DNA of 32,000 nt from Gemmata obscuriglobus (GTDB lineage: Bacteria; Planctomycetota; Planctomycetia; Gemmatales; Gemmataceae). Of the stretch, positions 3,335 through 22,237 are shown one piece after another. A model generated the notes under the pieces. That model did not search any database and had not been told where the DNA came from. It saw only the letters and a program-made list of their open reading frames with translations. Each line of letters begins with the position of its first letter. The stretch's first letter is position 1. Both the position numbers and the translations under genes were made by a program. Where the stretch lies: NCBI RefSeq assembly GCF_008065095.1, contig NZ_CP042911.1:7590001-7622000 (forward strand), written 5' to 3'.

Positions 3335-3569
3335 AACCATCGCGTGCAGGAGCGCGCGTGCGGCGCGTGGGCGTGTGGTCCGCGGTGGTAAAGCCCGTAT
3401 GTCGGGCTCCGCGTGGTGCCGGTGGTTGCGGGCGCGGCTCGTCGCCGCGAGGTGCGGTTGGTGCCGGCCTCCGGTGGGCCGGGACACGGTAGCGCGGGTC
3501 GGCGGTGGTGGCTCCGCGGATGCGCGGTACGAGCGCGGGCTCCGCGGAATCGCAACTGCCCGCGCAGAA
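3335..3569 (+). other. non-coding cassette NC-A1 (G/T-rich modular family; head, 1 module, tail type 1)
   Basis: Head CATCGCGTGCAGGAGCGCGCGTGCGG. One GCTCCGCGTGGTGCC...GCGCGGCTCGTCGCCGCGAGGTGCGGT module. The tail carries two TCCGCGGA palindromes. Confidence 0.7.
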
Positions 3570-3660
3570 GCCGAACCCGGCGCTGCACCTGACACCGCCC
3601 GCTAGTTTGTGACGCATTGCTGACTGTATGATGGCGGTGCAGGTGAGCTTTATGTTCGGC
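3570..3660 (+). repeat. attC-like site A1
   Basis: 91 nt, consensus arms, R'' GCCGAAC and R' GTTCGGC. Confidence 0.85.
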
Positions 3661-3670
3661 ACCAGAGGGC

Positions 3671-4012
3671 TTGCGCGTCGTGAAGGTGTATCTGGACGAC
3701 GAGCGTCCCACCCCGCCCGGCTGGGTGACCGTCCGCTGGCCGGACGAGGCCATCCGGCTGCTGGAGACCGGCCGGGTCACGGAGCTGAGCCTCGACCACG
3801 ACCTCGGGGACGACGCTCGGGGCACCGGGTACGCGGTCATCCTGTGGCTCGAGGAGGCGGTGGCCGTCCGCGGGTTCGTTCCGCCGACCATCACCGTCCA
3901 CACGGCCAACGCCTCGGCCCGGCAAAAGATGCTTCTCGGCGTCCGCAGCATCGAGCGCCTTGCCGAGCAAAGGCACGCCGAACCGGGCGGGGCACCGGAC
4001 CCGGCGGTGTAG
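3671..4012 (+). CDS. small REC-fold protein with DHDLG motif (resembles cyclic-phosphate-processing receiver-like family)
   Basis: Track ORF of 113 aa. TTG at 3671; the in-frame GTGs at 3680 and 3686 are more plausible starts. Pattern KVYLDDERPTPPGW...LSLDHDLGDD..GTGYAVILWLEE. The stop lies inside a decayed attC remnant. Confidence 0.6.
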   Translation: MRVVKVYLDDERPTPPGWVTVRWPDEAIRLLETGRVTELSLDHDLGDDARGTGYAVILWLEEAVAVRGFVPPTITVHTANASARQKMLLGVRSIERLAEQRHAEPGGAPDPAV

Positions 4013-4018
4013 TTCGTG
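3977..4018 (+). repeat. collapsed attC remnant
   Basis: GCCGAACCGGGCGGGGCACCGGACCCGGCGGTGTAGTTCGTG. The R'' and L'' arms are recognisable, the loop is lost and the R' has decayed to GTTCGTG. Confidence 0.5.
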
Positions 4019-4072
4019 TCGTGCGGCAGCTCCGCCGATGTGTCGCGGCATCCGTGGTCCCGGCGCAAGGCA

Positions 4073-4164
4073 GCCGAACCCGGCGCTGCACCTGACACCG
4101 CCAGGTGGTTTCCGACGCACCGCTCCCTGGGAGGGGGCGGTGCAGGTGAGCTTGATCGTTCGGC
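4073..4164 (+). repeat. attC-like site A2
   Basis: 92 nt, consensus arms. Confidence 0.85.
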
Positions 4165-4302
4165 CCCGCGCCGAGACCCACGGGGGTGGGCGCGATGTCG
4201 ATAGGGTAGCCAGCCCCCCATCCCAAGTGGCTGGCCCGACCCGCGCCCACCCCCGAGGCGCGAGCGGATCGGTGTAGCTCATCTGCCGGGCTGCATGAGC
4301 GG

Positions 4303-4345
4303 GGCCGAATGTGGAGCTCACCTTCACGGGCAGCCCATGTTCGGC
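4303..4345 (+). repeat. attC debris: inverted copy of an L'-R' arm plus a GTTCGGC core
   Basis: GCCGAATGTGGAGCTCACCT at 4303-4322 is the exact reverse complement of AGGTGAGCTCCACATTCGGC at 4431-4450. GTTCGGC lies at 4339-4345. Confidence 0.5.
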
Positions 4346-4360
4346 GTGGTGGGGCGCGGG

Positions 4361-4450
4361 GCCGAACCCTCCGCTGCACCAGACTCGCGCATGCAGAACT
4401 CGGGGATCGCCCCCTCCAGGGCGCGCGAGCAGGTGAGCTCCACATTCGGC
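4361..4450 (+). repeat. attC-like site A3 (divergent; R' is ATTCGGC)
   Basis: GCCGAACCCTCCGCTGCACCAGACTCGCGC...GCGCGCGAGCAGGTGAGCTCCACATTCGGC. The inner stem is replaced by a compensating TCGCGC/GCGCGA pair. Confidence 0.7.
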
Positions 4451-4771
4451 AACCCGAGGGCGCTGGATCGCGCGTGCGGCGGTGGTGGGCGTGTGGTCCG
4501 CGTGGGTGAACTCCGGTGTCGGGCTCCGCGTGGTGCCCGCCGGTGTGTGGCGCGGCTCATCGCCGCGAGGTCCGGTTGGGCGTGGTCGGCGGTGCATCGG
4601 ATCGGTGGTGCTCCGCGTGGTGCCCGTGGTTGGCGGGCGCGGCTCACCGCCGCGGGTGTCGGTGGTGGGCGGCCACCGGTGTGCCGCGGCACGGTGGTGC
4701 GGGTCGGTGGTGGCTCCGCGGATGCGCGGCGCGGGCGCGGGCTCCGCGGAACCGCGACGGTGGGCGCAGAA
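4451..4771 (+). other. non-coding cassette NC-A2 (head, 2 modules, tail type 1)
   Basis: GCGCGGCTC anchors at 4550 and 4637 (spacing 87). The tail carries two TCCGCGGA palindromes. Confidence 0.7.
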
Positions 4772-5355: not shown

Positions 5356-5826
5356 GTGTTCGAGTTCCGGGTGACGAAGTACGACCCGGCCCACCGCGAT
5401 AGCCGCGGGGCGTACACGCGGGACGAGTGGATCGCCGTCAGCGACATCGGCCAAGCGTTCGGCGGGGTGGTCCTCACCGAAGCCGAGTATCGGCGGGTCG
5501 AGGATGCCTACGTCGCTGCCGCCATCGCGTTCTTACGGGAGGCAGGCGTCGAGGCGCTGTCCGTGGCCGGGCTGGAGAACCACGCCCGCGTGCCGCTGCC
5601 GTTCGCGGACGGGTCGTCGCTCGGGCTGGCCGAGGCGGGCGGTGTCGTCCGGCGGTTGCTGCGGGCGGAGTTCTGGTGCCGGCTGGAGGGCGCGGGGGCA
5701 TTCGTCCACGTCGGGTACGACTACTACATGTACGTCGGGGTGCCGGTGGCGTGCCCGGGCGCGGTTGCGGACGCCCGGCAACTCGGCCTGTTCCCCGAGC
5801 CGTTCCGGTCGCCGTACCACGAGTAA
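5356..5826 (+). CDS. hypothetical cassette protein
   Basis: Track ORF of 156 aa. GTG start 9 nt after AGAGAGG. Own stop. MFEFRVTKYDPAHRDSRGAYTRDEWIAVSDIG... Confidence 0.6.
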   Translation: MFEFRVTKYDPAHRDSRGAYTRDEWIAVSDIGQAFGGVVLTEAEYRRVEDAYVAAAIAFLREAGVEALSVAGLENHARVPLPFADGSSLGLAEAGGVVRRLLRAEFWCRLEGAGAFVHVGYDYYMYVGVPVACPGAVADARQLGLFPEPFRSPYHE

Positions 5827-5832
5827 AGGCAC

Positions 5833-5923
5833 GCCGAACCCGGCGCTGCACCTGACACCGCCCGCTAGACTGCGACGCTCCGCTCATCCGATGATGGCGG
5901 TGCAGGTGAGCTTTATGTTCGGC
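5833..5923 (+). repeat. attC-like site A6
   Basis: 91 nt, consensus arms. Confidence 0.85.
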
Positions 5924-6381
5924 AACCATCGCGTGCAGGAGCGCGCGTGCGGCGGCGCTGACGGTGTGGTCCGCGTGGGTGAACCTCGCGCGTCGGGCTC
6001 CGCGTGGTGCCGATCGGGTCTGGCGCGGCTCGCCGCCGCGAGCTTGCGGTGGGCGTGGCCGGCGGTATCGTGGGACACGGTAGTTCGGGGCGGTGGTGCT
6101 CCGCGTGGTGCCGTTCGGGGCCGGCGCGGCTCATCGCCGCGAGGTGCGGTTGGGCGTGGCGGGCAGTGCGTCGGGACACGGTGGTGCGAGTCGGTGGCGC
6201 TCCGCGTGGTGCCGATCGGGGCTGGCGCGGCTCGTCGCCGCGAGGTGCGGTGGTGGGTGGCCACCGGTGGGCCGGGACACGGCGCGCGGGGTCGGTGGTG
6301 CTCCGCCCGCCCGCATCGGTGGCACGTGCTCCGCGGAGCCGCGGTGCTCGGCGTGCGACCCGGAACCGCGGTGGTCCGCGA
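5924..6381 (+). other. non-coding cassette NC-A3 (head, 3 modules, tail type 2)
   Basis: GCGCGGCTC anchors at 6023, 6124 and 6225. The spacing is 101 and 101 nt, not a multiple of 3. Confidence 0.75.
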
Positions 6382-6472
6382 GCCGAACCCGGCGCTGCAC
6401 CTGACACCGCCGGCTGATTCGGGACGCACTGCTCATCCGGTGGTGGCGGTGCAGGTGAGCTATTTGTTCGGC
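6382..6472 (+). repeat. attC-like site A7
   Basis: 91 nt, consensus arms. Confidence 0.85.
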
Positions 6473-6806
6473 ACCCAGAAGGGCGCTTGATCGCGCGTGC
6501 GGTGGTGTGCGTGTGGTCCGCGTGGGTGTACCTCGCGCGTCGTGCTCCGCGTGGTGCCGATCGGGTCTGGCGCGGCTCGCCGCCGCGAGGTGCGGTTGGG
6601 CATGGTCCGTGATGTGCGGCGACACGGTGGTGCGGGTCGGTGGTGCTCCGCGTGGTGCCCGCCGGTGGTGGGCGCGGCTCATCGCCGCGGGTGGCGGTGG
6701 TGGGCGGCCACCGGTGTGCCGCGGCACGGCGCGCAGGGGCGGTGGTGGCTCCGCGGATGCGCGGTACGAGCGCGGGCTCCGCGGAACCGCAACGGCCCGC
6801 GCAGAA
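6473..6806 (+). other. non-coding cassette NC-A4 (head, 2 modules, tail type 1)
   Basis: Same family. Module spacing is 102 nt. Confidence 0.7.
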
Positions 6807-6897
6807 GCCGAACCCGGCGCTGCACCTGACACCGCCATCTGATCCGGGACGCATCGCTCATCGTGTGATGGCGGTGCAGGTGAGCTTTATGTTCGGC
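6807..6897 (+). repeat. attC-like site A8
   Basis: 91 nt, consensus arms. Confidence 0.85.
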
Positions 6898-7254
6898 AAC
6901 CATCGCGCGCGTGAGGGCGCGTGTGGTGCTGGGCGTGTGATCCGCGCGGGTGAACCCCGCGTGTGGCGCTCCGCGTGGCGCCCGTGGGTGTGTGTCGCGG
7001 CTCATCGCCGCGAGGTGCGGTTGGTCGTGGCCGGGCGCGGGTGCGGACACGGTGATTGGGGGTCGGTGGTGCTCCGCGTAGTGCCCGTGGGTGGTCGGCG
7101 CGGCTCATCGCCGCGAGGTGCGGTGGTGGGCGGCCCCCGATGTGTGGCGACACGGCGTGCGGAGTCGGTGGTGCTCCGCCCGCCCGCACTGGTGGCGCGG
7201 CCTCCGCGGATGCGCGGCGCTCGGCGTATCGCCCGGAACCGCCGAGGGCATCGA
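6898..7254 (+). other. non-coding cassette NC-A5 (head, 2 modules, tail type 2)
   Basis: Same family. Anchors at 6995 and 7098 (spacing 103 nt). Confidence 0.7.
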
Positions 7255-7345
7255 GCCGAACCCGGCGCTGCACCTGACACCGCCCGCTGATCTGGGACGC
7301 ACCGCTCATCGTGTGATGGCGGTGCAGGTGAGCTTTCTGTTCGGC
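7255..7345 (+). repeat. attC-like site A9
   Basis: 91 nt, consensus arms. Confidence 0.85.
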
Positions 7346-7362
7346 CGCAGAGGGCATCGCGG

Positions 7363-7848
7363 ATGGGTGCGGTGGTGGACGAGGCCCGGAAGCTGCTCCC
7401 CAACCTCTCGCAGGACGACCTGGGGTGGTCCGGCACTGCGTTCGTGCCGTGCTGGGGTGCCGAGTTGGACATCCACCTCACCTGCCACGACGGGGTGATG
7501 GAGGCTCGGCAGGTCGAGACCGTCCGCGCGCTCCTCGGCCACACCGAGGACATCCGGCCGGGGTTCGAGCGGGCGCTGTTCGACTACTACCAAGAGGACG
7601 TGGACGGCACCTACTGTGCCTACGGGCCGGACGGGCCGATCCCCGGGTCCGGCCCGCCGAAACTGACCGAGCCGTCCCAGGTGTGGCCGCTCATCGACGG
7701 GCCGGAGGTGTACATCAAGTGGTTCGCCCGCACCCAGTCGGCGGTCGAGTTCGAGCTGAGCTTCAACTGCGAGTGGGATCGGGAGCACGGTCTCGGGGTC
7801 TTGTACCACGACTTCCGCCCCGTTGAGTTCGGTGGCTGGGACTTGTAG
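7363..7848 (+). CDS. hypothetical cassette protein (tentatively DUF6985-like immunity-type protein)
   Basis: Track ORF of 161 aa. ATG follows AGAGGGC. C-terminal ...FNCEWDREHGLGVLYHDFRPVEFGGWDL. Own stop. Confidence 0.6.
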   Translation: MGAVVDEARKLLPNLSQDDLGWSGTAFVPCWGAELDIHLTCHDGVMEARQVETVRALLGHTEDIRPGFERALFDYYQEDVDGTYCAYGPDGPIPGSGPPKLTEPSQVWPLIDGPEVYIKWFARTQSAVEFELSFNCEWDREHGLGVLYHDFRPVEFGGWDL

Positions 7849-8582: not shown

Positions 8583-9056
8583 GTGTATGTCGTAGCTTGT
8601 GCGGTCGTCGTACTGGTGGCGGTTCCGAACGTTCGCGAGAACCGGGAACTCGAAGAGCTGTGGGTACGAGAGGTGGCAACTCACTTCCTTGATGCCGCAC
8701 TTGCCGAGAACTTCAAGGAGGCACTTGCGTCGGCAACCGGCGAGTTTCGCCAGCGACTCAAGCAATCATCGAAGTTGTTTTACCCCGAGGACGAATTCTC
8801 TGGGCTTAAGCAGGTTATTTGGCCAGCAACCTGGAAGGCCGGACTTGCGGACGCGGGAGCATATCCCGTCGCCCGCCGCAGTCAACTGTCGCCTGCGGGG
8901 GACGAAGCACGGGTTACCGGTAAAATTCTGATCGGTCAGAGAGGCTCACGGAAGGCAATCGCACAGTTCAGCACCACACTGAACAAACAGACCGACGGAA
9001 AATGGCGTGTCAATGGGTTGACGGTCCAGACCTTTAAGACAACGGGAGCGCCGTAA
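8583..9056 (+). CDS. hypothetical exported or membrane-anchored protein
   Basis: Track ORF of 157 aa. GTG start after GGAGGGC. Hydrophobic N-terminus VYVVACAVVVLVAV. Lower GC than the flanks. Confidence 0.55.
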   Translation: MYVVACAVVVLVAVPNVRENRELEELWVREVATHFLDAALAENFKEALASATGEFRQRLKQSSKLFYPEDEFSGLKQVIWPATWKAGLADAGAYPVARRSQLSPAGDEARVTGKILIGQRGSRKAIAQFSTTLNKQTDGKWRVNGLTVQTFKTTGAP

Positions 9057-9196
9057 GGCCAACCGGTGAGGTGTCTGATCGCCCCGCGGCCGTGCGGTAA
9101 GATACGGGGGCCGCACTCATACCGACGTGTCGCGGTGGCTCTGCGGATGCGCGATGGTGGCGCGGGCTCCGCGGATGCGCCACGGTGGGCGCGGAA

Positions 9197-9340: not shown

Positions 9341-9829
9341 ATGAATCGCCTTTTGTACATTATAGCGGTTGGATTACTCGCCGCAGGTTGCAACAAGGGC
9401 AAGAATCACGAGCAGAAAGACTCCGCGCGCGAAATTAAAGCCGGCGAGTCGTTCGAGGACGAGGGGCTTGTGATCAGCGTGAAGGAGATCGCGAAGACAG
9501 ATTCCGGGCTCGTGCTGGCGATCAAGGTCGCGAACAGACACGCGGGCAAGGTCCATTACTTGCCGTCGTGGGATGAGCATCCTGAACCGGCTCGGATTAC
9601 CGACGAATACCGAAACGTCTTTTACGCAGCCGGCGCTCGTGACCATCCGCTGCGACCGCCGCTCAATCGCCAGTGGTACGGGACGTTCTCCGGCAACCGG
9701 ATCGATCCCAACAAAAGTGGAGACCTCTTTATTCCCCTTGATGATATTCCGCCATCGAGCAAGCGGTTGCGTGTCGAGTTGCCCTACGGAGGACGCACGC
9801 TGGTATTCGTTGATGTGCCGAGGCGTTAG
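9341..9829 (+). CDS. lipoprotein (signal peptide with lipobox LLAAGC)
   Basis: Track ORF of 162 aa. MNRLLYIIAVGLLAAGCNKG. Clearly lower GC than the window average. Confidence 0.65.
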   Translation: MNRLLYIIAVGLLAAGCNKGKNHEQKDSAREIKAGESFEDEGLVISVKEIAKTDSGLVLAIKVANRHAGKVHYLPSWDEHPEPARITDEYRNVFYAAGARDHPLRPPLNRQWYGTFSGNRIDPNKSGDLFIPLDDIPPSSKRLRVELPYGGRTLVFVDVPRR

Positions 9830-9945: not shown

Positions 9946-10671
9946 TCACAACCCGTTCCCGCTGGCGAACACACCGGCGGGCGCCCCGCCGATCGCGCTC
10001 GCGTCTCGCTCGTCGGGCACGCCGATTCCGGCCGCGTCCCCGCCCCCGCTGTGCTCCGCCAGCCAGCAGCACAGCGCAACGGCCATCACGATGTCGTCGT
10101 GCTGGCTCTGCTCGGCCCCGAAGGTCACGTTCTTCGACTTGGTGACGTGCTCGCGGAACGCTTGCAGCTCCTTCTCGAACCGCCCGATCAGGGGCAGCGC
10201 CCCCCGGGTGTTTGGGGCCTGCCACTTGAGCAGCTCGTTCTCCAGCAGCACGACCAGCGTGGAGACCAGCTCCTTCTTGGGAACGTGCCAGGAGCGGTCC
10301 TTGGTCTCGTCGGGAGTGCTGATCGAGTGCCCGGCGGTGATGCACACGGGGTGCAACCGGGCCTTCACCCGGGCCGCCATGACCTGCTCGATCACCGCCA
10401 TGCCGACGCCGGTGTAGTCCGCCGCGAGCGTCGTCCACGTCAGCGCCGGCTGCTCGTACAGCGCCTTCACGTCGCCGATCACGGACCGCTCGCCGGGCCG
10501 GGTCGCGGTGTACCGCGTGCCCAGGTCCCAGCTCTGCAGCCACCGGACGGAGTACGAGAACCGCCGCTTCGCGACGGGCTTGTCGAGCTTGCGGCGCCCG
10601 ACCGTGGCCAGGACGCTGAAGTCCGCGGCCTTGCCCAGGTCGAGGCCGCTGAACAGCTTCTCGGGGTTCAC
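9946..10671 (-). CDS. terminase large subunit, C-terminal RNase H-like nuclease domain only (split gene)
   Basis: In frame with track ORF 9946-10731. A GTG at 10671 overlaps the upstream stop (GTGA). VNPEKLFSGLDLGKAADFSVLATV...DYTGVGMAVIE...QHDDIVMAVALCCW matches the TerL nuclease Asp motifs. No ATPase domain lies upstream in frame. Confidence 0.8.
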   Translation of the reverse strand: MNPEKLFSGLDLGKAADFSVLATVGRRKLDKPVAKRRFSYSVRWLQSWDLGTRYTATRPGERSVIGDVKALYEQPALTWTTLAADYTGVGMAVIEQVMAARVKARLHPVCITAGHSISTPDETKDRSWHVPKKELVSTLVVLLENELLKWQAPNTRGALPLIGRFEKELQAFREHVTKSKNVTFGAEQSQHDDIVMAVALCCWLAEHSGGGDAAGIGVPDERDASAIGGAPAGVFASGNGL

Positions 10672-10778
10672 TCCCACAGCCCGCCCCTCGGGATCACGTC
10701 GTAATCGTGCCGGCCGTCGTCGCGGCCCCACGGGTCCGCCCGCCGGTCCGGGTCGGACGTGGGCGGATTCGGGTTCAC
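10668..10778 (-). CDS. possible 36-aa ORF bridging two GTGA overlaps
   Basis: VNPNPPTSDPDRRADPWGRDDGRHDYDVIPRGGLWE. Its start overlaps the stop of 10775-11179, and its stop overlaps the TerL-C start. Confidence 0.25.
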   Translation of the reverse strand: MNPNPPTSDPDRRADPWGRDDGRHDYDVIPRGGLWE

Positions 10779-11179: not shown

Positions 11180-11248
11180 GGTCGAGGCCCTCGGCGGACG
11201 GAGCGGAGGTGCGGGCGCCCGCACCTGACGAGCCCAGTGTGCGAGAAG

Positions 11249-11688: not shown

Positions 11689-12048
11689 CACCTTCGCGTT
11701 CTGGATCGCGCGTGCGGTGGTGGGCGTGTGGTCCGCGAAGGTGACGCCCACGCGTCGGTGGTGGCTCCGCGTGGTGCCGGTCGGGGCGGGCGCGGCTCGT
11801 CGCCGCGAGGTGTGGTTGGGCGTGGCCGGGGTGCGGGTGGGGACACGGCGGTTCGGGTCGGTGGTGCTCCGCGTGGCGCGCGTCAGGGCGGGCGCGGCTC
11901 GTCGCCGCGAGGTGCGGTGATGGGTGGCCACCGGTGGGCCGCGACACGGCGATTCGAGTCGGTGGGGCTCCGCTCGGCCGCACCGGTGCCGCGGGTTCCG
12001 CGGATGCGCCAAGCTCGGCGTGTCGCCCGGAACCGCGGAGGCGAGCGA
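11689..12048 (+). other. non-coding cassette NC-B1 (2 modules, tail type 2)
   Basis: Anchors at 11790 and 11892 (spacing 102). Confidence 0.7.
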
Positions 12049-12138: not shown

Positions 12139-12490
12139 CACCCGAGCGTGCTGGAGCGCCCGTGCGGCGGTGTGCGTGTGGCCCGCGTGGGTGAACCCCG
12201 CGGGTCGGGCTCCGCGTGGTGCCGGTCGGGTCTGGCGCGGCTCGCCGCCGCGAGGTGCGGTGGGCGTGGCCCGGTGTGGGTGGGGACACGGCGGGTCGGA
12301 TCGGTGGTGTTCCGCGTGGTGCCCGTGGGTGGCCGGCGCGGCTCATCGCCGCGAGGTGCGGTTGGTGCCGGCCTCCGATGGGCCGCGACACGGCGCATCG
12401 GGTCGGTAGCGCTCCGCCCGGTCGCACCGGTGGCCCGGGCATCCGCAGATGCGCGGCACTGAGCGCGCCCGGAACCGCCGAGGGCATCGA
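12139..12490 (+). other. non-coding cassette NC-B2 (2 modules, tail type 2)
   Basis: Anchors at 12235 and 12336 (spacing 101). Confidence 0.7.
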
Positions 12491-13890: not shown

Positions 13891-14225
13891 AACCATCGCG
13901 TGCATGAGGGCGCGTGCGGCGGTGTGCGTGTGGTCCGCGAAGGTGACGCCCGCGTGTGGTGCTCCGCGTGGTGCCCGTGGGTGTGTGGCGCGGCTCGCCG
14001 CCGCGAGGTGCGGTTGGGCGTGGCCGGTGATGCGTGGGGACACGGTGGTGCGTGTCGGTGGTGCTCCACGGGGCGCCCGCCGGTGGTCGGCGCGGCTCAT
14101 CGCCGCGGGTGTCGGTGGTGGGTGGCCTCCGGCGTGCCGCGACACGGCGCGTGGGGTCGGTGGTGGCTCCGCTCGCACGCACCGGTGGGCGGGCTCCCGC
14201 GGATGCGCGGCGCGGACGTGAGCGA
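13891..14225 (+). other. non-coding cassette NC-B3 (2 modules)
   Basis: Anchors at 13988 and 14090 (spacing 102). Confidence 0.7.
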
Positions 14226-14316: not shown

Positions 14317-14333
14317 AAGAGAGGGCTTAGGCG

Positions 14334-14774
14334 GTGGCAGACCTGTGGCGGGACTGGCCCCACCGATGGTTCGGCTTCTTCTGCTGGGAGTCCACGCAGG
14401 ACGATGTGTTCCCGTCCCTCGGTCGTCTCCTCGATGCGTCCTGGCAGGTGGCGGACCGAGCGGAACTGCTGGAGTACCTGCGGCAGACGCCGGTGTGCTG
14501 GTCCACGCAGCCGAGCTACTGCCCATGTTCGCTGTGCGGCGAGTCGCTGACCGACAATGCGACCTGGCGGTGGGATGGGGAGTGGCTCTGGCCGCACACG
14601 CTGGCGCACTACGTCGAGCGGCACGGGCTGCGGTTGCCCGACGCGCTCGTCGCCCGGATCCGCGGCCGGGGGCATGTGCCGCCGCAGCTCCGAGCTTGCG
14701 ACTTGGACGCAGCGTGGCGGGTCAACGCCACTATCGACGAGGTCGCGGCCGGGCGGGAGCCGCCTGCCGAGTAA
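14334..14774 (+). CDS. hypothetical cassette protein (Cys-containing; WLWPHTLAHYVERHGLRLPD motif)
   Basis: Track ORF of 146 aa. GTG start after AGAGAGGGC. Own stop. Confidence 0.55.
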   Translation: MADLWRDWPHRWFGFFCWESTQDDVFPSLGRLLDASWQVADRAELLEYLRQTPVCWSTQPSYCPCSLCGESLTDNATWRWDGEWLWPHTLAHYVERHGLRLPDALVARIRGRGHVPPQLRACDLDAAWRVNATIDEVAAGREPPAE

Positions 14775-14780
14775 AGGCCC

Positions 14781-14870
14781 GCCGAACCCGGCGCTGCACC
14801 GGACCGCTGTAAACTACGCACTCGGTAGACCGTGTCGCGGCGTGCGCGGCCGGTGAGCTATTTGTTCGGC
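14781..14870 (+). repeat. attC-like site B6 (arm variant 2)
   Basis: GCACCGGACCGC...GCGGCCGGTGAGC. 90 nt. Confidence 0.8.
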
Positions 14871-15228
14871 ACCCAGAGGTCGCTTGATCGCGCGTGCGGC
14901 GGCGGTGAGCGTGTGGTCCGCGTGGGTGAACCCCGCGTGTCGGGCTTCGCGTGGTGCCAATCGGGGCGGGCGCGGCTCGTCGCCGCGAGGTGCGGTTGGG
15001 CGTGGCCGGATGCGGGTGGGGACACGACGGGTCGGCTCGGTGGTGCTCCGCGTGTGGCCCGTGGGTGGCGGGCGCGGCTCACCGCCGCGAGTTGCGGTGG
15101 TGGGTGGTCTCCGGCGTGCCGCGACACGGCGCGCGGGGTCGGTGGTGCTCCGCCCGCCCGCATCGGTGGCACGGGCTCCGCGGAGGCGCGGCGCTCGGCG
15201 TGTCGCCCCGAACCGCGGTGGTAAGCGA
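14871..15228 (+). other. non-coding cassette NC-B4 (2 modules, tail type 2)
   Basis: Anchors at 14970 and 15072 (spacing 102). Confidence 0.7.
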
Positions 15229-15319
15229 GCCGAACCCGGCGCTGCACCTGACACCGCCCGCTAGTCTGGGACGCATCGCTGACGGTATGATGGCGGTGCA
15301 GGTGAGCTGTTCGTTCGGC
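15229..15319 (+). repeat. attC-like site B7
   Basis: 91 nt, consensus arms. Confidence 0.85.
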
Positions 15320-15655
15320 CACCCGAGGGCGCTCGATCGCGCGGGCGGCGGTGGTGGGCGTGTGGTCCGCATGGGTGAACCCCGCGTGCCGTGCTCCGCG
15401 TGGTGCCGATCGGGACGGGCGCGGCTCGCCGCCGCGAGGTGCGGGTGGGCGTGGCTGGTGGTGCCGTGGGACACGGTGGTGCGGGTCGGTGGTGCTCCGC
15501 GTGTGGCCCGTGGGTGTCTGGCGCGGCTCACCGCCGCGAGGTGCGGTGGTGGGTGGCCCCCGGTGTGCCGCGGCACGGTGGTGCGGGTCGGTGGTGGCTC
15601 CGCGGAACCGCGACGCGGGCGCGGGCTCCGCGGAACCGCACATCCCAGCGCAGAA
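15320..15655 (+). other. non-coding cassette NC-B5 (2 modules, tail type 1)
   Basis: Anchors at 15419 and 15521 (spacing 102). Confidence 0.7.
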
Positions 15656-15746
15656 GCCGAACCCGGCGCTGCACCTGACACCGCCATCTGTTCTGGGACG
15701 CACCGCTCATCCGGTGATGGCGGTGCAGGTGAGCTTTATGTTCGGC
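15656..15746 (+). repeat. attC-like site B8
   Basis: 91 nt, consensus arms. Confidence 0.85.
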
Positions 15747-15764
15747 AACCAGAGGGCGCAGCGG

Positions 15765-16049
15765 ATGGGTAGCAGCGAAGCGAGCCTGCCTCTTTACGAT
15801 CACTGCTCGCTGTGCGGCGCAGCAATCCGCAGGTGCGATTCGGTGGTGACCATCGAACGGCACGAAGAGCAGGTGTGTGCAAACGGCGACGTCGAGATCA
15901 CTCGAGCGGAGGTGCTGGTGTCGCTTTGCATGCCTTGTGGGCAGCGTTACCCGCTGTCGGTTACACGGGTCGAGTTGGGCGGTCAAGCGTTCATCGGCGC
16001 GAAGTGGCCCGAGGCCGAACCCGGCGCTGCACCTGACACCGCCCGCTGA
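15765..16049 (+). CDS. hypothetical Cys-rich cassette protein (94 aa)
   Basis: ATG at 15765 after AGAGGGCGC. MGSSEASLPLYDHCSLCGAAIRRCDS...CMPCGQRY. The stop (TGA) is supplied by the attC loop, giving the tail AEPGAAPDTAR. Confidence 0.55.
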   Translation: MGSSEASLPLYDHCSLCGAAIRRCDSVVTIERHEEQVCANGDVEITRAEVLVSLCMPCGQRYPLSVTRVELGGQAFIGAKWPEAEPGAAPDTAR

Positions 16050-16104
16050 TTCGGAACGCATCGCGGCCCGGGACCTCGCGGTGCAGGTGAGCTGTTCGTT
16101 CGGC
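16014..16104 (+). repeat. attC-like site B9
   Basis: 91 nt. The 3' arm is CGCGGTGCAGGTGAGC. Confidence 0.85.
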
Positions 16105-16119
16105 AGGAAGAGGGCGCGG

Positions 16120-16626
16120 ATGGGGAACGTCCGGCTGAGAACGGTGACCTATTCGGACCTCTCCGCTTTGCGGCACGAAGTGGCGGTCGTCGATGGCCCG
16201 CAGTTCCAACCTCCCGAGTTCCTCGTCGTTCGCTACTTCGGCTCCTATCGCGATGGGTCCGAGGGCACGCCGGACGCCAAGTACATCCTCGCCGCGTCCG
16301 CAGCCGCCCGGGAGGCGTGGTGGTCACGGTGTACCGTCCTCGACTTCCGTGAGCTCGTGTACCGCTGGGGAGACAACATGGCGTGGGTCACTCAGATCGG
16401 GCGCGATGGGGTGACCAAGCTCCAGTGGCCGCTCGCCATCGTGGTTGGGGACGGTTGTCGTGATGCACTCCGGTCACTGTTGCGGGACGAGTATGCGGGT
16501 CTGTGCGTGGAGTCGCTGGACGAGGCGTTTACCCTCTGCCGAGTTAAGGCTGAGGAGCATGAGCGACAGCTCAAGCAATGGCGGCCGCGGGCCGAACCCG
16601 GCGCTGCACCTGACACCGCCGGCTGA
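16120..16626 (+). CDS. hypothetical cassette protein (168 aa), copy 1 of 3
   Basis: ATG at 16120 after AAGAGGGCGC. MGNVRLRTVTYSDLSALRHEVAVVDGPQF... The stop lies in the attC loop. Confidence 0.6.
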   Translation: MGNVRLRTVTYSDLSALRHEVAVVDGPQFQPPEFLVVRYFGSYRDGSEGTPDAKYILAASAAAREAWWSRCTVLDFRELVYRWGDNMAWVTQIGRDGVTKLQWPLAIVVGDGCRDALRSLLRDEYAGLCVESLDEAFTLCRVKAEEHERQLKQWRPRAEPGAAPDTAG

Positions 16627-16681
16627 CTTGTGACGCATCGCTCATTCGATGATGGCGGTGCAGGTGAGCTCTTTGTTCGGC
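16591..16681 (+). repeat. attC-like site B10
   Basis: 91 nt, consensus arms. Confidence 0.85.
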
Positions 16682-16695
16682 AACAGAGGGCGCTG

Positions 16696-17259
16696 ATGGC
16701 AGCGGATGAGGTGGTCCCGCACATCGGCATCCGGTCGCTCGCCGGCATGGTGCGGCTGGGCATGACCCGCGCGGAAGTACAACCCCTGCTCGACCAGGAT
16801 CGCGACATCCGGGTGGATTTCCGCGGTGATCCACCGGTGGTGGCGTTCGTCGAATCGCCCAAGCACTGGGGATCGTTCGAGGGCATCGACCTGTTCGAGG
16901 CCGGGGCCGACGAGGTCATCGCCGAGATCGCCGAGCGGCTCGGGTTGGCGCCAGAAGTGTACCGGCCAGGGCGGCACTCGTACTACTTCCCCGATCTGCG
17001 CATGGGCCTGTGGCGGAGTTGCGTGTCGGACGAGGACGGCGACCAGGGCTTCACGTTCGACAGCGTGAGCGTCCACGCGCCGGGGTACTACGATCCCACG
17101 GGACTGGCGTTCATCCGGCATCAGGGCGGGCTGCCTCCGGAGCAGAGGCACGCCGAACCCGGCGCTGCACCTGACACCGCCCGCTGTATTGTGACGCACC
17201 GCTCATCCGGTCATGGCGGTGCAGGTGAGCTAATTGTTCGGCCACCATCGCGTGCATGA
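16696..17259 (+). CDS. hypothetical cassette protein; the frame reads through the whole attC
   Basis: ATG at 16696 after CAGAGGGCGC. MAADEVVPHIGIRSLAGMVRLGMTRAEVQPLL... There is no stop in the attC loop, so the ORF continues 17 nt into the next cassette. Confidence 0.55.
   Translation: MAADEVVPHIGIRSLAGMVRLGMTRAEVQPLLDQDRDIRVDFRGDPPVVAFVESPKHWGSFEGIDLFEAGADEVIAEIAERLGLAPEVYRPGRHSYYFPDLRMGLWRSCVSDEDGDQGFTFDSVSVHAPGYYDPTGLAFIRHQGGLPPEQRHAEPGAAPDTARCIVTHRSSGHGGAGELIVRPPSRA
17152..17242 (+). repeat. attC-like site B11
   Basis: 91 nt, consensus arms. Confidence 0.85.
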
Positions 17260-17605
17260 GCGCGGGCGGCGGCGGTGGTGGTGAGCGTGTGGTCCGCGGC
17301 GCGTCCGGCGGTGCTGTGGTGCTCCGCGTGGTGCCCGAGTGTGACGGGCGCGGCTCAGCGCCGCGAGGTGCGGTTGGGCGTGGCCGGGGTGCGGGTGGGG
17401 ACACGATCGGGCGTGTCGGTGGTGCTCCGCGTGGTGCCGGTGGGTGGCGGGCGCGGCTCATCGCCGCGAGGTGCGGTGGTGGGCGGCCTCCGATGGGTCG
17501 GGATACGGTGGTGCGGGTCGGTGGTGCTCCGCTCGGCCGCACCGGTGCCGCGGGCATCCGCAGATGCGCGGCACTGAGCGCGCCCGGAACCGCCGAGGGC
17601 ATTGA
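17243..17605 (+). other. non-coding cassette NC-B6 (2 modules, tail type 2)
   Basis: Anchors at 17349 and 17451 (spacing 102). Duplicated at 18220-18582. Confidence 0.7.
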
Positions 17606-17696
17606 GCCGAACCCGGCGCTGCACCTGACACCGCCCGCTGATCCGGGACGCACCGCTTATCCGGCGATGGCGGTGCAGGTGAGCTTTACGTTCGGC
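17606..17696 (+). repeat. attC-like site B12
   Basis: 91 nt, consensus arms. Confidence 0.85.
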
Positions 17697-17712
17697 CGCA
17701 GAGGGCGCAGGG

Positions 17713-18165
17713 ATGGCGGAGCGGTTAGTCGAGTGGACCGACCCGCCCCCGATGCACCCACATCGGGCCAACCCAGCGTTTCTTTACGAAGAGGGCAGCG
17801 GTCCGGTCTGGTGCCATTACCTGGCGTACGCCCTTCGCGAGTCGGAGGAGCACTTCGCGGTCCTACTGTTCTGCTGCGAGGACTCGGACGTAGTGTCGCT
17901 CACAAGCCCAGCAGCTGACAAGCATCCGTACCGCACGCTGGGGCTGATTGGGCCTAGGTTCTTCCGACTCCTCGATTCCCCGCGGCAGAACGGGTACGAT
18001 CTTTACCACCTGCTCTGCGCGTTCCCACAGCGGACGATCGAGGTGGTCTGCATGACATATGCGGTATTGGAGAGCAGAATTGCGGCGCGGTCGTCGGTCG
18101 GCGCATTGCTCGCTGTGGTTGCCAAGCAGGCCGAACCCGGCGCTGCACCTGACACCGCCCGCTGA
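17713..18165 (+). CDS. hypothetical cassette protein (150 aa)
   Basis: Track ORF. ATG after CAGAGGGCGC. The stop lies in the attC loop (tail AEPGAAPDTAR). Confidence 0.55.
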   Translation: MAERLVEWTDPPPMHPHRANPAFLYEEGSGPVWCHYLAYALRESEEHFAVLLFCCEDSDVVSLTSPAADKHPYRTLGLIGPRFFRLLDSPRQNGYDLYHLLCAFPQRTIEVVCMTYAVLESRIAARSSVGALLAVVAKQAEPGAAPDTAR

Positions 18166-18219
18166 CTTGGAACGCATCGCTCCTTGGGAGGGGCGGTGCA
18201 GGTGAGCTATTTGTTCGGC
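18130..18219 (+). repeat. attC-like site B13
   Basis: 90 nt, consensus arms. Confidence 0.85.
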
Positions 18220-18582
18220 CACCATCGCGTGCATGAGCGCGGGCGGCGGCGGTGGTGGTGAGCGTGTGGTCCGCGGCGCGTCCGGCGGTGCTGTGGTGCT
18301 CCGCGTGGTGCCCGAGTGTGACGGGCGCGGCTCAGCGCCGCGAGGTGCGGTTGGGCGTGGCCGGGGTGCGGGTGGGGACACGATCGGGCGTGTCGGTGGT
18401 GCTCCGCGTGGTGCCGGTGGGTGGCGGGCGCGGCTCATCGCCGCGAGGTGCGGTGGTGGGCGGCCTCCGATGGGTCGGGATACGGTGGTGCGGGTCGGTG
18501 GTGCTCCGCTCGGCCGCACCGGTGCCGCGGGCATCCGCAGATGCGCGGCACTGAGCGCGCCCGGAACCGCCGAGGGCATTGA
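18220..18582 (+). other. non-coding cassette NC-B7 (copy of NC-B6)
   Basis: By eye the sequence matches 17243-17605. The track translations are identical (for example 17275-17577 and 18252-18554). Confidence 0.7.
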
Positions 18583-18673
18583 GCCGAACCCGGCGCTGCA
18601 CCTGACACCGCCCGCTGATCCGGGACGCACCGCTTATCCGGCGATGGCGGTGCAGGTGAGCTTTACGTTCGGC
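18583..18673 (+). repeat. attC-like site B14
   Basis: 91 nt. Same as B12. Confidence 0.85.
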
Positions 18674-18908
18674 TACCATCGCGAGCATGAACGCGCGTGC
18701 GGCGGCGGTGGGCGTGTGGTCCGCGGTGCGTAAGACGGTTGTGTCGCACGAGGTGGCGGGTGTCGCCGCGGCCCCGGTTGTGATGCCGCGGTGGGCCGCA
18801 CGGCACCGCGCGTGTCGCGGGCTCGGGCACGGCCGATGCGCGGCGCCGGCGCGGGCTCCGCAGAGCCGCGTGCGCAACGGCGCAGAAGCGAACCGCGGAC
18901 GGCAGCGA
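18674..18908 (+). other. non-coding cassette NC-B8 (family head, divergent body, no canonical module)
   Basis: Head CATCGCGAGCATGAACGCGCGTGCGGCGGCGGTGGGCGTGTGGTCCGCGG is followed by unrelated GC-rich sequence. Confidence 0.55.
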
Positions 18909-18999
18909 GCCGAACCCGGCGCTGCACCTGACACCGCCATGTAGTTTGGACGGCATCGCTCATCCGATGATGGCGGTGCAGGTGAGCTGTATGTTCGGC
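18909..18999 (+). repeat. attC-like site B15
   Basis: 91 nt, consensus arms. Confidence 0.85.
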
Positions 19000-19027
19000 C
19001 GCGGAAGGTATCGGAGGTGGTAGCGGC

Positions 19028-19525
19028 ATGCCCGAGGTGTACTTCGACCATGCGGAAGTAGATGGTCCGATTCCCCCGGGCGCGGACGCGATCGTCCGGC
19101 TGATGCGTGAGCGAGGCGAGGACTACTGGAATGATGCCGAGGACGGCCCCGGGTTCAAGTCCCTGTACTACTATGCCGAAGGGCGGGATTCGGACGTGGG
19201 GTGTACCGCGGAGTTGGTGCTCACCAAGAAGGACCGGTACGGGTTCCACTTCTGGCTGCACTACCCGGTGAGCTGGGTGGACTCGCCGTACTACCGCGAG
19301 CACGAGTCGCACTACTCGTGCTCGGACCCCGACCTGCGGGAGTGGGTGGGCGTCGGCGACTCGCATGAGGGCCAGCGGCCCATCTTCGCCGGCCTGTTCG
19401 TGCCGGTCGAGGACGCCGTTGAGGTGGTCCGCGAGTTCGTCCGCTCCGGCGAGCGATCCCCGCGCATCCGGTGGGTCGATGGGCGGTTCATCCGGGACGC
19501 CGAGCGGCGGCACGGCATCCCCTAA
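19028..19525 (+). CDS. hypothetical cassette protein, resembles the Imm1-type immunity family
   Basis: Track ORF of 165 aa. ...LFVPVEDAVEVVREFVRSGERSPRIRWVDG... is the recalled Imm1-like C-terminal pattern. Own stop. Confidence 0.6.
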   Translation: MPEVYFDHAEVDGPIPPGADAIVRLMRERGEDYWNDAEDGPGFKSLYYYAEGRDSDVGCTAELVLTKKDRYGFHFWLHYPVSWVDSPYYREHESHYSCSDPDLREWVGVGDSHEGQRPIFAGLFVPVEDAVEVVREFVRSGERSPRIRWVDGRFIRDAERRHGIP

Positions 19526-19533
19526 GCGCAGAC

Positions 19534-19625
19534 GCCGAACCCGGCGCTGCACCTGACACCGCCATGTAGTCTGTGTTGCGTTGCTCCTTGGGAGGGGGCG
19601 GTGCAGGTGAGCTTCAATATTCGGC
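19534..19625 (+). repeat. attC-like site B16 (R' is ATTCGGC)
   Basis: 92 nt. Consensus arms; the first base of the core is G to A. Confidence 0.8.
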
Positions 19626-19643
19626 AACAGAAGGGCGCACGGA

Positions 19644-20186
19644 ATGGCGGAACCGCAAGCCACCGAGTACCCGACGCGCGAATGGCTTACCGATCGCTTT
19701 GCGGACGTGCAGTTCACGCACCGCGTCCCCGCCGTGAAGTGGGCATACTTCACGCAGTTGATCCGCCCGCTTGCGGGTGAAGCCGCAGGAATCCTATGGT
19801 CGGCGCTGTTCGCCGGGGTTGGGCGGCCGTTCCATCCCCGGCTCGCACGCGGGTGGATGGGGGAGCTGTTCAAGCGAGGCCCCCGCAGTCGGGGCTCTGA
19901 CTTCAAGCACGGGGAGTTACTCGACGCGGGGCTGTGCAGCCGGTTGGGGTGGGCGTCCTCCGCGCCGGTGTTCCTGGTCTTCCAGCCGACGCAGGTGTAC
20001 GTGGCCCCCTGGTCCGTGTGGCTAGATTGCTTCCGCCGCAGTTGGGTGCCGTTCGATACCTCGGTCCTGTGCAGCGACTCGTCATCGAAGGTCGCGGTGT
20101 TCTGGGAGGGCTTTGGCCCGTACTTCGCCGACCGCGGGGCGCGAAGCCTGGCCGAACCCAGCGCTGCACCGGACCCGGCCACGTAG
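19644..20186 (+). CDS. hypothetical cassette protein (180 aa)
   Basis: Track ORF. ATG after CAGAAGGGCGC. The stop lies in the attC loop. Confidence 0.55.
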   Translation: MAEPQATEYPTREWLTDRFADVQFTHRVPAVKWAYFTQLIRPLAGEAAGILWSALFAGVGRPFHPRLARGWMGELFKRGPRSRGSDFKHGELLDAGLCSRLGWASSAPVFLVFQPTQVYVAPWSVWLDCFRRSWVPFDTSVLCSDSSSKVAVFWEGFGPYFADRGARSLAEPSAAPDPAT

Positions 20187-20262
20187 TTCGTTTCCCGGCG
20201 CTCCCCGGTCGGCCGTGTGCGCTACTGGTGTCGCGGCCGGGCCGGTGAGCTTTATGTTCGGC
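20151..20262 (+). repeat. attC-like site B17 (arm variant, long loop)
   Basis: 112 nt. CACCGGACCCGGCC...GGCCGGGCCGGTG. Confidence 0.8.
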
Positions 20263-20619
20263 CACCCCGAGCCGCTCGATCGCGCGTGCGGCGGCGGTGG
20301 GCGTATGGCCCGCGTGGGTGAACCGCGCGTGTGGTGCTCCGCGTGGTGCCGGCGGTGGCGGGCGCGGCTCGCCGCCGCGAGCTTGCGGTGGTCGTGGCCG
20401 GGTGCGGATGGGTGCACGGTGGTGCGGGTCGGTGGTGCTCCGCTGAGACCGATCGGTTGCGGGCGCGGCTCATCGCCGCGTGTGGCGGTGGTGGGTGGCC
20501 CTCGGTGTGCCGGGACACGGCGCGCGGAGTCGGTGGTGCTCCGCCCGGTCGCACCGGTGGCACGGGCTCCGCAGATGCGCGGCGCTCGGCGTGTTGCCCG
20601 GAACCGCGGAGGGGAGCGA
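20263..20619 (+). other. non-coding cassette NC-B9 (2 modules, tail type 2)
   Basis: Anchors at 20362 and 20463 (spacing 101). Confidence 0.7.
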
Positions 20620-20710
20620 GCCGAACCCGGCGCTGCACCTGACACCGCCCGCTCTACTGCGACGCTCCGCTCATCCGGTGATGGCGGTGCAGGTGAGCTT
20701 GTTGTTCGGC
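20620..20710 (+). repeat. attC-like site B18
   Basis: 91 nt, consensus arms. Confidence 0.85.
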
Positions 20711-20725
20711 AGGAAGAGGGCGCGG

Positions 20726-21232
20726 ATGGGGAACGTCCGGCTGAGAACGGTGACCTATTCGGACCTCTCCGCTTTGCGGCACGAAGTGGCGGTCGTCGAT
20801 GGCCCGCAGTTCCAACCTCCCGAGTTCCTCGTCGTTCGCTACTTCGGCTCCTATCGCGATGGGTCCGAGGGCACGCCGGACGCCAAGTACATCCTCGCCG
20901 CGTCCGCAGCCGCCCGGGAGGCGTGGTGGTCACGGTGTACCGTCCTCGACTTCCGTGAGCTCGTGTACCGCTGGGGAGACAACATGGCGTGGGTCACTCA
21001 GATCGGGCGCGATGGGGTGACCAAGCTCCAGTGGCCGCTCGCCATCGTGGTTGGGGACGGTTGTCGTGATGCACTCCGGTCACTGTTGCGGGACGAGTAT
21101 GCGGGTCTGTGCGTGGAGTCGCTGGACGAGGCGTTTACCCTCTGCCGAGTTAAGGCTGAGGAGCATGAGCGACAGCTCAAGCAGTGGCGGCCGCGGGCCG
21201 AACCCGGCGCTGCACCTGACACCGCCGGCTGA
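20726..21232 (+). CDS. hypothetical cassette protein (168 aa), copy 2 of 3
   Basis: Same protein as 16120-16626. Confidence 0.6.
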   Translation: MGNVRLRTVTYSDLSALRHEVAVVDGPQFQPPEFLVVRYFGSYRDGSEGTPDAKYILAASAAAREAWWSRCTVLDFRELVYRWGDNMAWVTQIGRDGVTKLQWPLAIVVGDGCRDALRSLLRDEYAGLCVESLDEAFTLCRVKAEEHERQLKQWRPRAEPGAAPDTAG

Positions 21233-21287
21233 CTTGTGACGCATCGCTCATTCGATGATGGCGGTGCAGGTGAGCTCTTTGTTCGGC
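21197..21287 (+). repeat. attC-like site B19
   Basis: 91 nt, consensus arms. Confidence 0.85.
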
Positions 21288-21303
21288 CACCAGAGGCGTA
21301 CGG

Positions 21304-21771
21304 ATGAATCGCTGGCGTGTGAGGTTGCTCGCGTTCGCTGGCTTGTGCTCGGTCGGCACTCTCATGTACCTGACCCGCGCCGATCGTACGCCCGAGGCCG
21401 ACCCGGAAGGGCTCCATACGGATGACCGCGTCCGACGACTGGCCCCGTACGACATCGCGGCCGCAACGGTGGCAACGTGGTCTCCACTCGACATACCACC
21501 GCTGGGGGTGGTGCCCGCGGGCGCCACCCGTCCACGCCGGGAAGTGTTCGAGGCGCTCGGACTCGACGAACACCGGGTCCGTGACCTCCGTGCGTCCCCT
21601 TCCTTTCGCGTGACGATTCTTCGGTGGCAGGTGTCTCCGTCCTACGACGTGGTGTGTATGACCGCTGACAACAGCCCGGCGTCTAGCGCGGTCCCGCTCG
21701 ATGACCCGGAACGCTCGGTCTACGGCATCCGGTTCGTGAGCCGCTCGGAGGGGGCACACCATATCTGGTAA
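21304..21771 (+). CDS. hypothetical exported protein
   Basis: Track ORF of 155 aa. N-terminal MNRWRVRLLAFAGLCSVGTLMYL. Own stop. Confidence 0.55.
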   Translation: MNRWRVRLLAFAGLCSVGTLMYLTRADRTPEADPEGLHTDDRVRRLAPYDIAAATVATWSPLDIPPLGVVPAGATRPRREVFEALGLDEHRVRDLRASPSFRVTILRWQVSPSYDVVCMTADNSPASSAVPLDDPERSVYGIRFVSRSEGAHHIW

Positions 21772-21788
21772 TCGGCCAGAGCAACGGA

Positions 21789-21879
21789 GCCGAACCCCGC
21801 GCTGCACCGGACCGCGGCGACCGAAGCTGATTCCAGTGTTCATGCTCACACGCCGCGGCCGGTGAGCTCATTGTTCGGC
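21789..21879 (+). repeat. attC-like site B20 (arm variant 2)
   Basis: CACCGGACCGCGGC...GCCGCGGCCGGTG. 91 nt. Confidence 0.8.
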
Positions 21880-22237
21880 CACCATCGCGTGCATGATCGC
21901 GCGGGCGGCGGTGCTGGGCGTGTGGTCCGCATGGGTGAACTCCGCGTGTCGGGCTCCGCATTATGCCGGTGGTCGCGGGCGCGGCTCATCGCCGCGAGCT
22001 TGCGGTGAGCGTGGCCGGCGGTGTCGTGGGACACGGCGTTTCGTGTCGGTGGTGCTCCGCGTGGCGCCCGTGGGTGGTGGGCGCGGCTCATCGCCGCGAG
22101 GTGCGGTTGGGCGTGGGCTCCGGTGTGCCGCGACACGGCGCGTCGGGTCGGTGGTGGCTCCGCTCGGCCGCGTCGGTGGGCGGGCTCCGCGGCGCCGCAG
22201 TGCTCGGCGTGAGGCCCGGAACCGCGGTGGTCAGCGA
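21880..22237 (+). other. non-coding cassette NC-B10 (2 modules)
   Basis: Anchors at 21979 and 22081 (spacing 102). Confidence 0.7.

Follow-up and report, generated by a model that had tools for sequence, protein, structure and literature searches.

Non-coding gene cassettes make up 6-49% of Vibrio integron arrays and tend to be paralogous (Boucher et al. 2006, PMC1382264), with one family present in 45 copies among the 219 cassettes of V. vulnificus CMCP6 and in 34 copies in strain YJ016 (PMC1382264). These cassettes have close homologs within vibrios only, are apparently under purifying selection, and have been proposed to be either selfish elements or regulatory elements, that is, promoters or RNAs (PMC1382264). 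Oral Treponema integrons contain cassettes that lack an open reading frame (ORF) and carry sigma-70-like promoters shown to be active (Tansirichaiya et al. 2019, as cited in PMC8876359), and Xanthomonas campestris has an integron-encoded trans-acting small RNA (sRNA), sRNA-Xcc1 (Chen et al. 2011, as cited in PMC8876359). Here we describe a family of modular, ORF-less cassettes in the cassette arrays of the planctomycete Gemmata obscuriglobus, 15 members of which lie in a 32,000-nucleotide stretch of contig NZ_CP042911.1 (positions 7,590,001 to 7,622,000; hereafter the window).

In every defining feature that could be tested, the Gemmata family belongs with the Vibrio-type cassettes, and not with the promoter or sRNA types. 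Like the Vibrio families, it has a normal attC site, lacks an ORF, shows no codon-type substitution pattern, occurs as many paralogs per array, has homologs only in species of the same genus, and is conserved in a manner that suggests purifying selection. An original prediction, made by a model from the letters of the window, had found no known counterpart for the family; this was overstated, as paralogous non-coding families are known in Vibrio (Boucher et al. 2006, PMC1382264). The two differ in host phylum and attC type, and their sequences are unrelated. The Gemmata family also has internal tandem modules and an extreme keto (G+T) skew of its sense strand, with no evidence of either described for Vibrio, and the share taken by a single family is higher in Gemmata (~32-37% of each sampled array) than in Vibrio. 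The Treponema promoter cassettes, as presented in PMC8876359, are similar to the Gemmata family in being ORF-less, in carrying a standard attC within arrays and in their proposed action in cis on neighbors, but they carry active promoters, whereas the Gemmata cassettes are without a sigma-70-like or extracytoplasmic function (ECF)-like motif. According to the same source, sRNA-Xcc1 is likewise non-coding and encoded in a cassette array, but is a single, short, regulated sRNA gene, unlike the dozens of ~340-nucleotide (nt) cassettes found here, which have no Rfam match and no covariation.

A modular family of non-coding cassettes

A cassette protein encoded at 9341-9829 has an identical counterpart in G. 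obscuriglobus CP025958.1, which puts the window at ~399.9-431.9 kb of that genome, reverse strand. The window contains two cassette arrays on the plus strand, array A from 3335 to ~9313 and array B from 11689 to 25727. Between 3570 and 25727 they hold ~41 attC sites on this strand, each ~91 nt long and with canonical core sites (R'' GCCGAAC..., R' GTTCGGC). Fifteen cassette bodies align as one paralogous family, and all of them are flanked by attC on the plus strand in the same orientation as coding cassettes; this attC-bounded context also holds for family copies in five other loci (L073, L074, L012, L029 and L018). The original prediction had named 15 paralogous, gene-less cassettes amounting to ~37% of the total. 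Its coordinates proved exact to the base, the 15th member being 18674-18908, and the share stands at 15 of ~41 cassettes. In each cassette an ordinary attC follows an untranslated body 235-460 nt long, in which a head precedes the ~101-nt modules, usually two in number, and a tail built of ~28-nt units. The non-coding (NC) cassettes of the window, all on the plus strand, are as follows.

3335..3569, plus strand: NC cassette A1, which opens array A; head 3335-3405, single module 3406-3506, tail type 1
4451..4771, plus strand: NC cassette A2; head, modules 4523-4604 (shortened, 87 nt) and 4610-4712, tail type 1
5924..6381, plus strand: NC cassette A3; head, modules 5997-6098, 6098-6197 and 6199-6300, tail type 2
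6473..6806, plus strand: NC cassette A4; GAGGGCGC-type head, modules 6544-6645 and 6645-6747, tail type 1
6898..7254, plus strand: NC cassette A5; head, modules 6968-7070 and 7071-7173, tail type 2
11689..12048, plus strand: NC cassette B1, which opens array B; head, modules 11764-11865 and 11866-11965, tail type 2
12139..12490, plus strand: NC cassette B2; head, modules 12209-12309 and 12310-12409, tail type 2
13891..14225, plus strand: NC cassette B3; head, modules 13961-14063 and 14063-14165, short tail variant
14871..15228, plus strand: NC cassette B4; head, modules 14944-15045 and 15045-15147, tail type 2
15320..15655, plus strand: NC cassette B5; head, modules 15393-15494 and 15494-15596, tail type 1
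17243..17605, plus strand: NC cassette B6; head, modules 17321-17424 and 17424-17526, tail type 2
18220..18582, plus strand: NC cassette B7; aligned sequence and scores equal to those of B6, within the duplication 17148-17696 = 18126-18673
18674..18908, plus strand: NC cassette B8; family head 18675-18746, weak tail match, divergent middle without a canonical module, 12% A
20263..20619, plus strand: NC cassette B9; head, modules 20336-20437 and 20437-20538, tail type 2
21880..22237, plus strand: NC cassette B10; head, modules 21953-22054 and 22054-22156, tail type 2

The predicted architecture of a head, 0-3 modules and a tail abutting attC was borne out by the alignment and by a hidden Markov model (HMM) of the repeat unit. 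The head, of ~70 nt, exists in two variants, CCATCGCGTGCATGAGCGCG and CCGAGGGCGCTSGATCGCG. Searching the whole window with the HMM, we found 28 modules of 87-104 nt (mostly 101-103 nt), all of them on the plus strand and within the 14 module-bearing cassettes. The cassette at 18674 has no module, that at 3335 has one and that at 5924 has three, with two in each of the remainder. In a typical cassette the two modules are of distinct subtypes in a fixed order, M1 followed by M2. A 25-base module pattern, GCTCCGCG-N16-24-GCGCGGCTCNNCGCCGCG, gave 22 matches on the plus strand versus none in 100 shuffles. With copies from other loci counted in, 46 are complete, and in 42 of these the modules number exactly two and the length is 330-360 nt. 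The tail is a tandem of ~28-nt units, GCTCCGCGGA(T/A)(G/C)CGC...GCGCGG, that directly abuts attC; the two tail types originally proposed are the main ones, and a short variant exists as well. In base content, 14 of the bodies have 6-8% A, ~47% G, 30% C and ~16% T, while A makes up 12% of the body at 18674-18908 and 13-21% of coding cassettes.

The family bodies are non-coding. A comparison of 36 distinct two-module copies gave 40 distinct internal indels, 37 of which have lengths not divisible by three, and body lengths modulo 3 are evenly spread (14/15/16). Column variability shows no codon phase, either in modules or in ungapped blocks, and module lengths of 87 and 100-104 nt shift the reading frame from module to module. 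The start codon is not conserved, with ATG, GTG or TTG at the fixed head position in only 9 of the 15 copies. This agrees with the original prediction that the cassettes carry no credible gene. Its statement that all six frames stay open holds roughly: each frame has 0-3 stops per cassette, and which frames are open varies among copies. In protein databases, the translated query matched only a few hypothetical Gemmata ORFs and two unnamed metaclust entries. The long, overlapping ORFs on these cassettes are spurious and arise because the strand is A-poor and hence stop-poor, in agreement with the explanation first given for them. Two of them have been annotated as genes in public records and span NC cassettes and attC sites: an ORF of 241 amino acids at 5765-6490 on the plus strand (CP025958.1) and one of 313 amino acids at 5913-6854 on the minus strand (draft ABGO01000243). 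Both are almost certainly artifacts of the stop-poor strand.

Spread of the family and strand-specific constraint

The family is larger than first stated, extending to further G. obscuriglobus arrays and to other Gemmata. Through database matches to two spurious ORFs, we located two other regions of CP025958.1, at 2.83 Mb (L073) and 6.65 Mb (L074), in which 14-15 of 45 and 13-14 of 42 cassettes, respectively, are of this family. Modules number 28 in the window, 28 in L073, 27 in L074 and 4 in L075, all on the plus strand, and none lies outside attC arrays in ~74 kb of sequence from G. obscuriglobus and Gemmata sp. JC717. One window copy, B5 (15320-15655), is 99.4% identical to a copy in the 6.65 Mb array (L074:6738-7073). 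In the three G. obscuriglobus regions we counted 4, 5 and 6 adjacencies between NC cassettes versus 4.0, 4.7 and 4.3 expected. The NC cassettes are thus randomly interspersed among coding cassettes, and tandem clustering by local duplication was rejected. These regions show that G. obscuriglobus has at least two further long attC arrays: both L073 and L074 have >40 cassettes in 20 kb, with the array continuing past both ends of the fetched locus, and their cassette products include SMI1/KNR4 (SUKH)- and Imm1-type immunity domains, ankyrin repeats and DUF1877.

Other carriers of the family are G. algarum JC673, Gemmata sp. JC717 and a Gemmata metagenome-assembled genome (MAG). Using patterns that demand an exact match at 20-25 specified bases, which diverged relatives would escape, we found the family in Gemmata only when scanning genomes, the other matches being due to chance, as were all 30 matches in the metagenome scan and all 5 in the viral scan. 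A literature search returned nothing relevant on Gemmata integrons or Gemmata non-coding RNA, and no expression data.

The copies have a mean pairwise identity of 79% and a star-like spread, with nearest neighbors typically 82-89% identical. Copies from G. algarum are equally close to G. obscuriglobus copies and to each other, and the family is therefore old and diverse, with no recent burst. Of its 332 alignment columns 97 are invariant, versus an expectation of ~4.6 for a star tree with equal rates; a 13-copy subset, with all pairs <82% identical, has 137 invariant columns versus 63 expected. Variation is clustered in short segments of nearly fixed length that separate invariant blocks.

The bases of the conserved columns are 4.8% A, 33% C, 50% G and 12% T, whereas variable columns have 13% A, 27% C, 33% G and 27% T, and four-fold sites in 69 ORFs of neighboring coding cassettes have 11% A, 37% C, 40% G and 12% T. 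Mutational drift was rejected as the source of the A-poor strand, since the skew is in the conserved columns and the four-fold sites of neighboring genes are unskewed. Thus, the A-poor, G-rich strand belongs to the selected blocks and the constraint is strand-specific. On the sense strand, the conserved G-rich blocks are GCTCCGCGTGGTGCC; GGCGCGGCTC-NN-CGCCGCGAGGTGCGG; GGACACGG; GTCGGTGGTG; and GCTCCGCGGA. The variable columns are multi-allelic for C, G and T with little A, transitions are about as frequent as transversions, and there are runs with 1-4-nt indels. This pattern led us to reject adenine-directed diversification of the kind produced by diversity-generating retroelements; the flanking ORFs tested yielded no reverse-transcriptase domain.

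Two further possibilities were rejected. The first was a promoter or terminator cassette. No NC cassette has a sigma-70-like site (the whole 19.5 kb has two, both elsewhere), an ECF-like GGAAC-N15-18-CGT motif or an intrinsic-terminator-like site; the promoter scans covered sigma-70-like and ECF-like motifs, and Planctomycete-specific promoter types fall outside their scope. A TATAAT-like box is hardly possible at 7% A (and 7% T on the opposite strand). The second was derivation of the bodies from attC: an attC HMM found nothing in 45 NC bodies (E <= 10, filters off), while it did detect attC fragments in some other cassettes.

Explanations for the conserved blocks

The explanation that we tentatively favor, as plausible though short of probable, is that of a Gemmata-specific, ORF-less cassette family that is spread by integrase and kept for strand-specific blocks read by a sequence-specific factor on RNA or single-stranded DNA. 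Because copies sit at unrelated positions in several arrays, we infer that they are mobile. The integron integrase would excise and re-insert each copy like any other cassette, in a process in which copies can be added, and in this way would have dispersed them randomly over at least four of the genome's arrays. Selection preserves the short G-rich blocks of the sense strand, rather than a protein, a promoter or a co-varying RNA fold, with segments of free sequence of fixed length separating them. The blocks would be recognition sites read by the putative factor on one strand, either the array sense transcript or the top strand as single-stranded DNA, and the element would act in cis within arrays.

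Several points weigh against this explanation. No binding factor, transcript or integrase is in evidence, and intI is absent from the window and its annotated neighbors, including beside both copies of a duplicated leader described below. The attC sites of NC and coding cassettes have equal predicted bottom-strand folding (pair probability 0.613 versus 0.619, p = 0.95), and therefore no self-promoting recombination advantage was detected in silico. In the one cassette folded as a whole (15320-15655), the structure is no more stable than in dinucleotide shuffles, with minimum free energy (MFE) z-scores of -0.34 on the plus strand and -0.52 on the minus strand. Short inverted repeats around the variable segments (GCC/GGC, CGCGGC/GCCGCG, GGCC/GGCC and GACACG/CGGGTC) might be hairpin stems, but the stems never vary. 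The palindromes CGCGGC-N5-GCCGCG and TCCGCGGA fit a symmetric double-stranded operator equally well. In addition, the constraint may serve the cassette itself instead of the host.

This last point leads to the rival that survives best, a selfish or neutral passenger without host function, multiplied by duplicative excision and re-insertion of a short, silent and costless cassette whose constraint serves its own mobilization. The family accounts for roughly one in three cassettes of the three G. obscuriglobus regions (13/39, 15/45 and 14/42), its copies are randomly interspersed, it is confined to Gemmata, all copies carry the host's canonical attC, and the same idea has been put forward for the Vibrio families (PMC1382264). 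However, a passenger should decay evenly, yet 97 of 332 columns are invariant at 79% mean identity, and it should shrink, yet 42 of 46 complete copies have kept a length of 330-360 nt. Moreover, attC folding gave no in silico advantage and the body has no attC-like sequence. We consider this rival credible but doubtful.

It is quite unlikely that the cassettes are arrays for double-stranded DNA binding, with 4-6 sites per cassette and the blocks as operators for a DNA-binding protein, for example a repressor, a nucleoid protein or an accessory factor of the integrase. Invariant blocks with spacers of free sequence and fixed length would suit such an array, as would the palindromic core CGCGGC-N5-GCCGCG, in which the central NN alone varies, and the perfect 8-bp palindrome of the tail units. 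The top peak of module variability, a weak signal, is at a period of ~10.1 nt. The bias of the conserved columns for G over C and T over A is, however, unexpected for symmetric duplex sites, a module spacing of 101-103 bp does not correspond to an integral number of helical turns, and there is no known candidate protein.

A structured non-coding RNA, transcribed from the array promoter, excised from the cassette transcript and acting in trans or as a protein sponge, appears very unlikely. The strand-specific constraint, the modular and repetitive sequence of ~340 nt with several GGA-containing hairpin-like units, and the existence of cassette-borne sRNAs such as sRNA-Xcc1 (as cited in PMC8876359) are in its favor. 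So is a hand-built four-hairpin model, in which 93.5% of cells pair across 47 M2 modules. Nevertheless, the covariation terms of RNAalifold were only -0.45 kcal/mol for 25 modules, -0.93 for 36 whole cassettes and -0.26 for 47 M2 modules, nearly all predicted pairs being invariant or altered on one side only. The four-hairpin model had a covariation score of 0.110 versus 0.107 in shuffled alignments, a value reached by 110 of 500 shuffles in a test whose power is low given mostly invariant stems, and every covariation measure for this model fell inside the column-shuffle controls (110-448 of 500 reaching the observed value). Rfam yielded no match at the gathering score in the window and none at E <= 1 in 5850-7400, in line with the original prediction, which could match the family to no named RNA or repeat class. 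A terminator-like end is absent, and the MFE z-scores given above are near zero. Hairpins are possible, but selection for pairing is without support. The description of the family as structured was thus not upheld by RNAalifold, the four-hairpin model or the MFE z-scores, and covariation, the test originally proposed for an RNA fold, was no better than in shuffles.

We regard as highly improbable a G-quadruplex or R-loop element that alters replication, transcription or single-strand exposure in the arrays. With 47% G on the top strand, 12 NC cassettes contain 52 two-tetrad, short-loop motifs versus 21.9 +/- 4.2 in dinucleotide shuffles, unlike coding cassettes (19 versus 17), but these counts are non-independent, the copies being paralogs. 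Canonical three-tetrad motifs are not enriched (2 versus 2.8), and G4Hunter maxima of 1.1-2.0 are not above those of coding cassettes (0.9-1.6) in this genome of 70% GC. Finally, a protein-coding cassette of odd composition, or pseudogenes of one, for which long ORFs in several frames could speak, some of them annotated as hypothetical proteins, is practically excluded by the frame-breaking indels and module lengths, the lack of codon periodicity, the unconserved start, the open frames that differ from copy to copy and homologs limited to spurious Gemmata ORFs. None of the three roles originally suggested, structured RNA, protein-binding array or selfish cassette, has been confirmed.

The surrounding locus and the meaning of the family

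Tail units also end cassettes that have no NC head or modules, in 2-3 tandem copies, at ~5560-5660 of locus L018 and in the window:

9134..9196, plus strand: a tandem pair of ~28-nt tail units (GGCTCYGCGGATGCGC...GCGCGG) that lies immediately ahead of attC, in the untranslated 3' part of the coding cassette with ORF 8583-9056

Reuse of the units outside the NC family is seen in a coding cassette and in a cassette of the Gemmata MAG. The tail is therefore a separable sub-element. In enterobacteria, repetitive extragenic palindromic (REP) units and bacterial interspersed mosaic elements (BIMEs) are short, GC-rich units with inverted-repeat cores that form tandem clusters in 3' untranslated regions and are numerous and strand-specific. 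The Gemmata units resemble them by description, with no sequence similarity claimed, in their GC-rich inverted-repeat cores, tandem arrangement, position in untranslated 3' regions, number and strand specificity. REP units occur in alternating orientation and are associated with RAYT transposases, whereas those of Gemmata are all direct and confined to integron cassettes, and no RAYT-type gene was seen in the window.

A leader of 454 bp is duplicated immediately 5' of arrays A and B (2881-3334 and 11236-11688, 92.7% identity). It carries three direct repeats, CCGTGTTATTG(C/T)GC, terminates with GGTTCGGC where the first cassette begins, and from its sequence looks like an attI region. Array B has segmental duplications spanning several cassettes, with 15649-17246 repeated at 23688-25286 (99.2%) and 17148-17696 at 18126-18673 (97.5%), and the arrays therefore grow by block duplication in addition to gaining single cassettes. 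The large subunit of a phage terminase appears split, with its N-terminal ATPase half at 26712-27584 on the minus strand (PF03237, phrog_7579) and a likely C-terminal half at 9946-10731 on the minus strand (phrog_27743, a weak terminase match); leader B and the complete array B lie between the two. Prophage-like genes for a DnaJ-domain protein and a D12 methyltransferase are found at 28.9-30.6 kb. A 196-nt cassette at 4165-4360 holds an inverted partial attC at ~4300-4345, and the same cassette occurs in L073 at 8966.

Most cassettes have a near-identical 5' leader, (A/C)ACCAGAGGGCGC, in their first ~25 nt (for example 15747, 16682, 17697 and 22329), which is common to unrelated coding cassettes and has an ATG 6-9 nt downstream. 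About half of the NC heads retain GAGGGCGC, but with ATC, CTG or TTG at the expected ATG position.

For annotation, some of the ORFs on the A-poor strand are already in protein databases as hypothetical proteins and should be masked. The role of non-coding cassettes in large chromosomal integrons has been a standing question since their description in Vibrio. The Gemmata family is a tractable case, with dozens of copies per genome, a fixed order of head, M1, M2 and tail, and strand-specific constraint, and its sharp separation of blocks and loops supplies defined mutational targets and baits. On a reading that we hold to be unlikely, the blocks could be parts of the Gemmata integron system, as single-strand sites for the integrase, for an accessory factor or, as Chi-like clusters, for the recombinational repair machinery, or could be the binding motif of a new class of RNA. 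This reading would predict blocks of the kind observed, strand-biased conserved columns and a family retained over long times in several species. If it is true, a third of each array would be infrastructure and not cargo. If the family proves to be no more than selfish, it would nonetheless illustrate drive inside integron arrays in quantitative terms.

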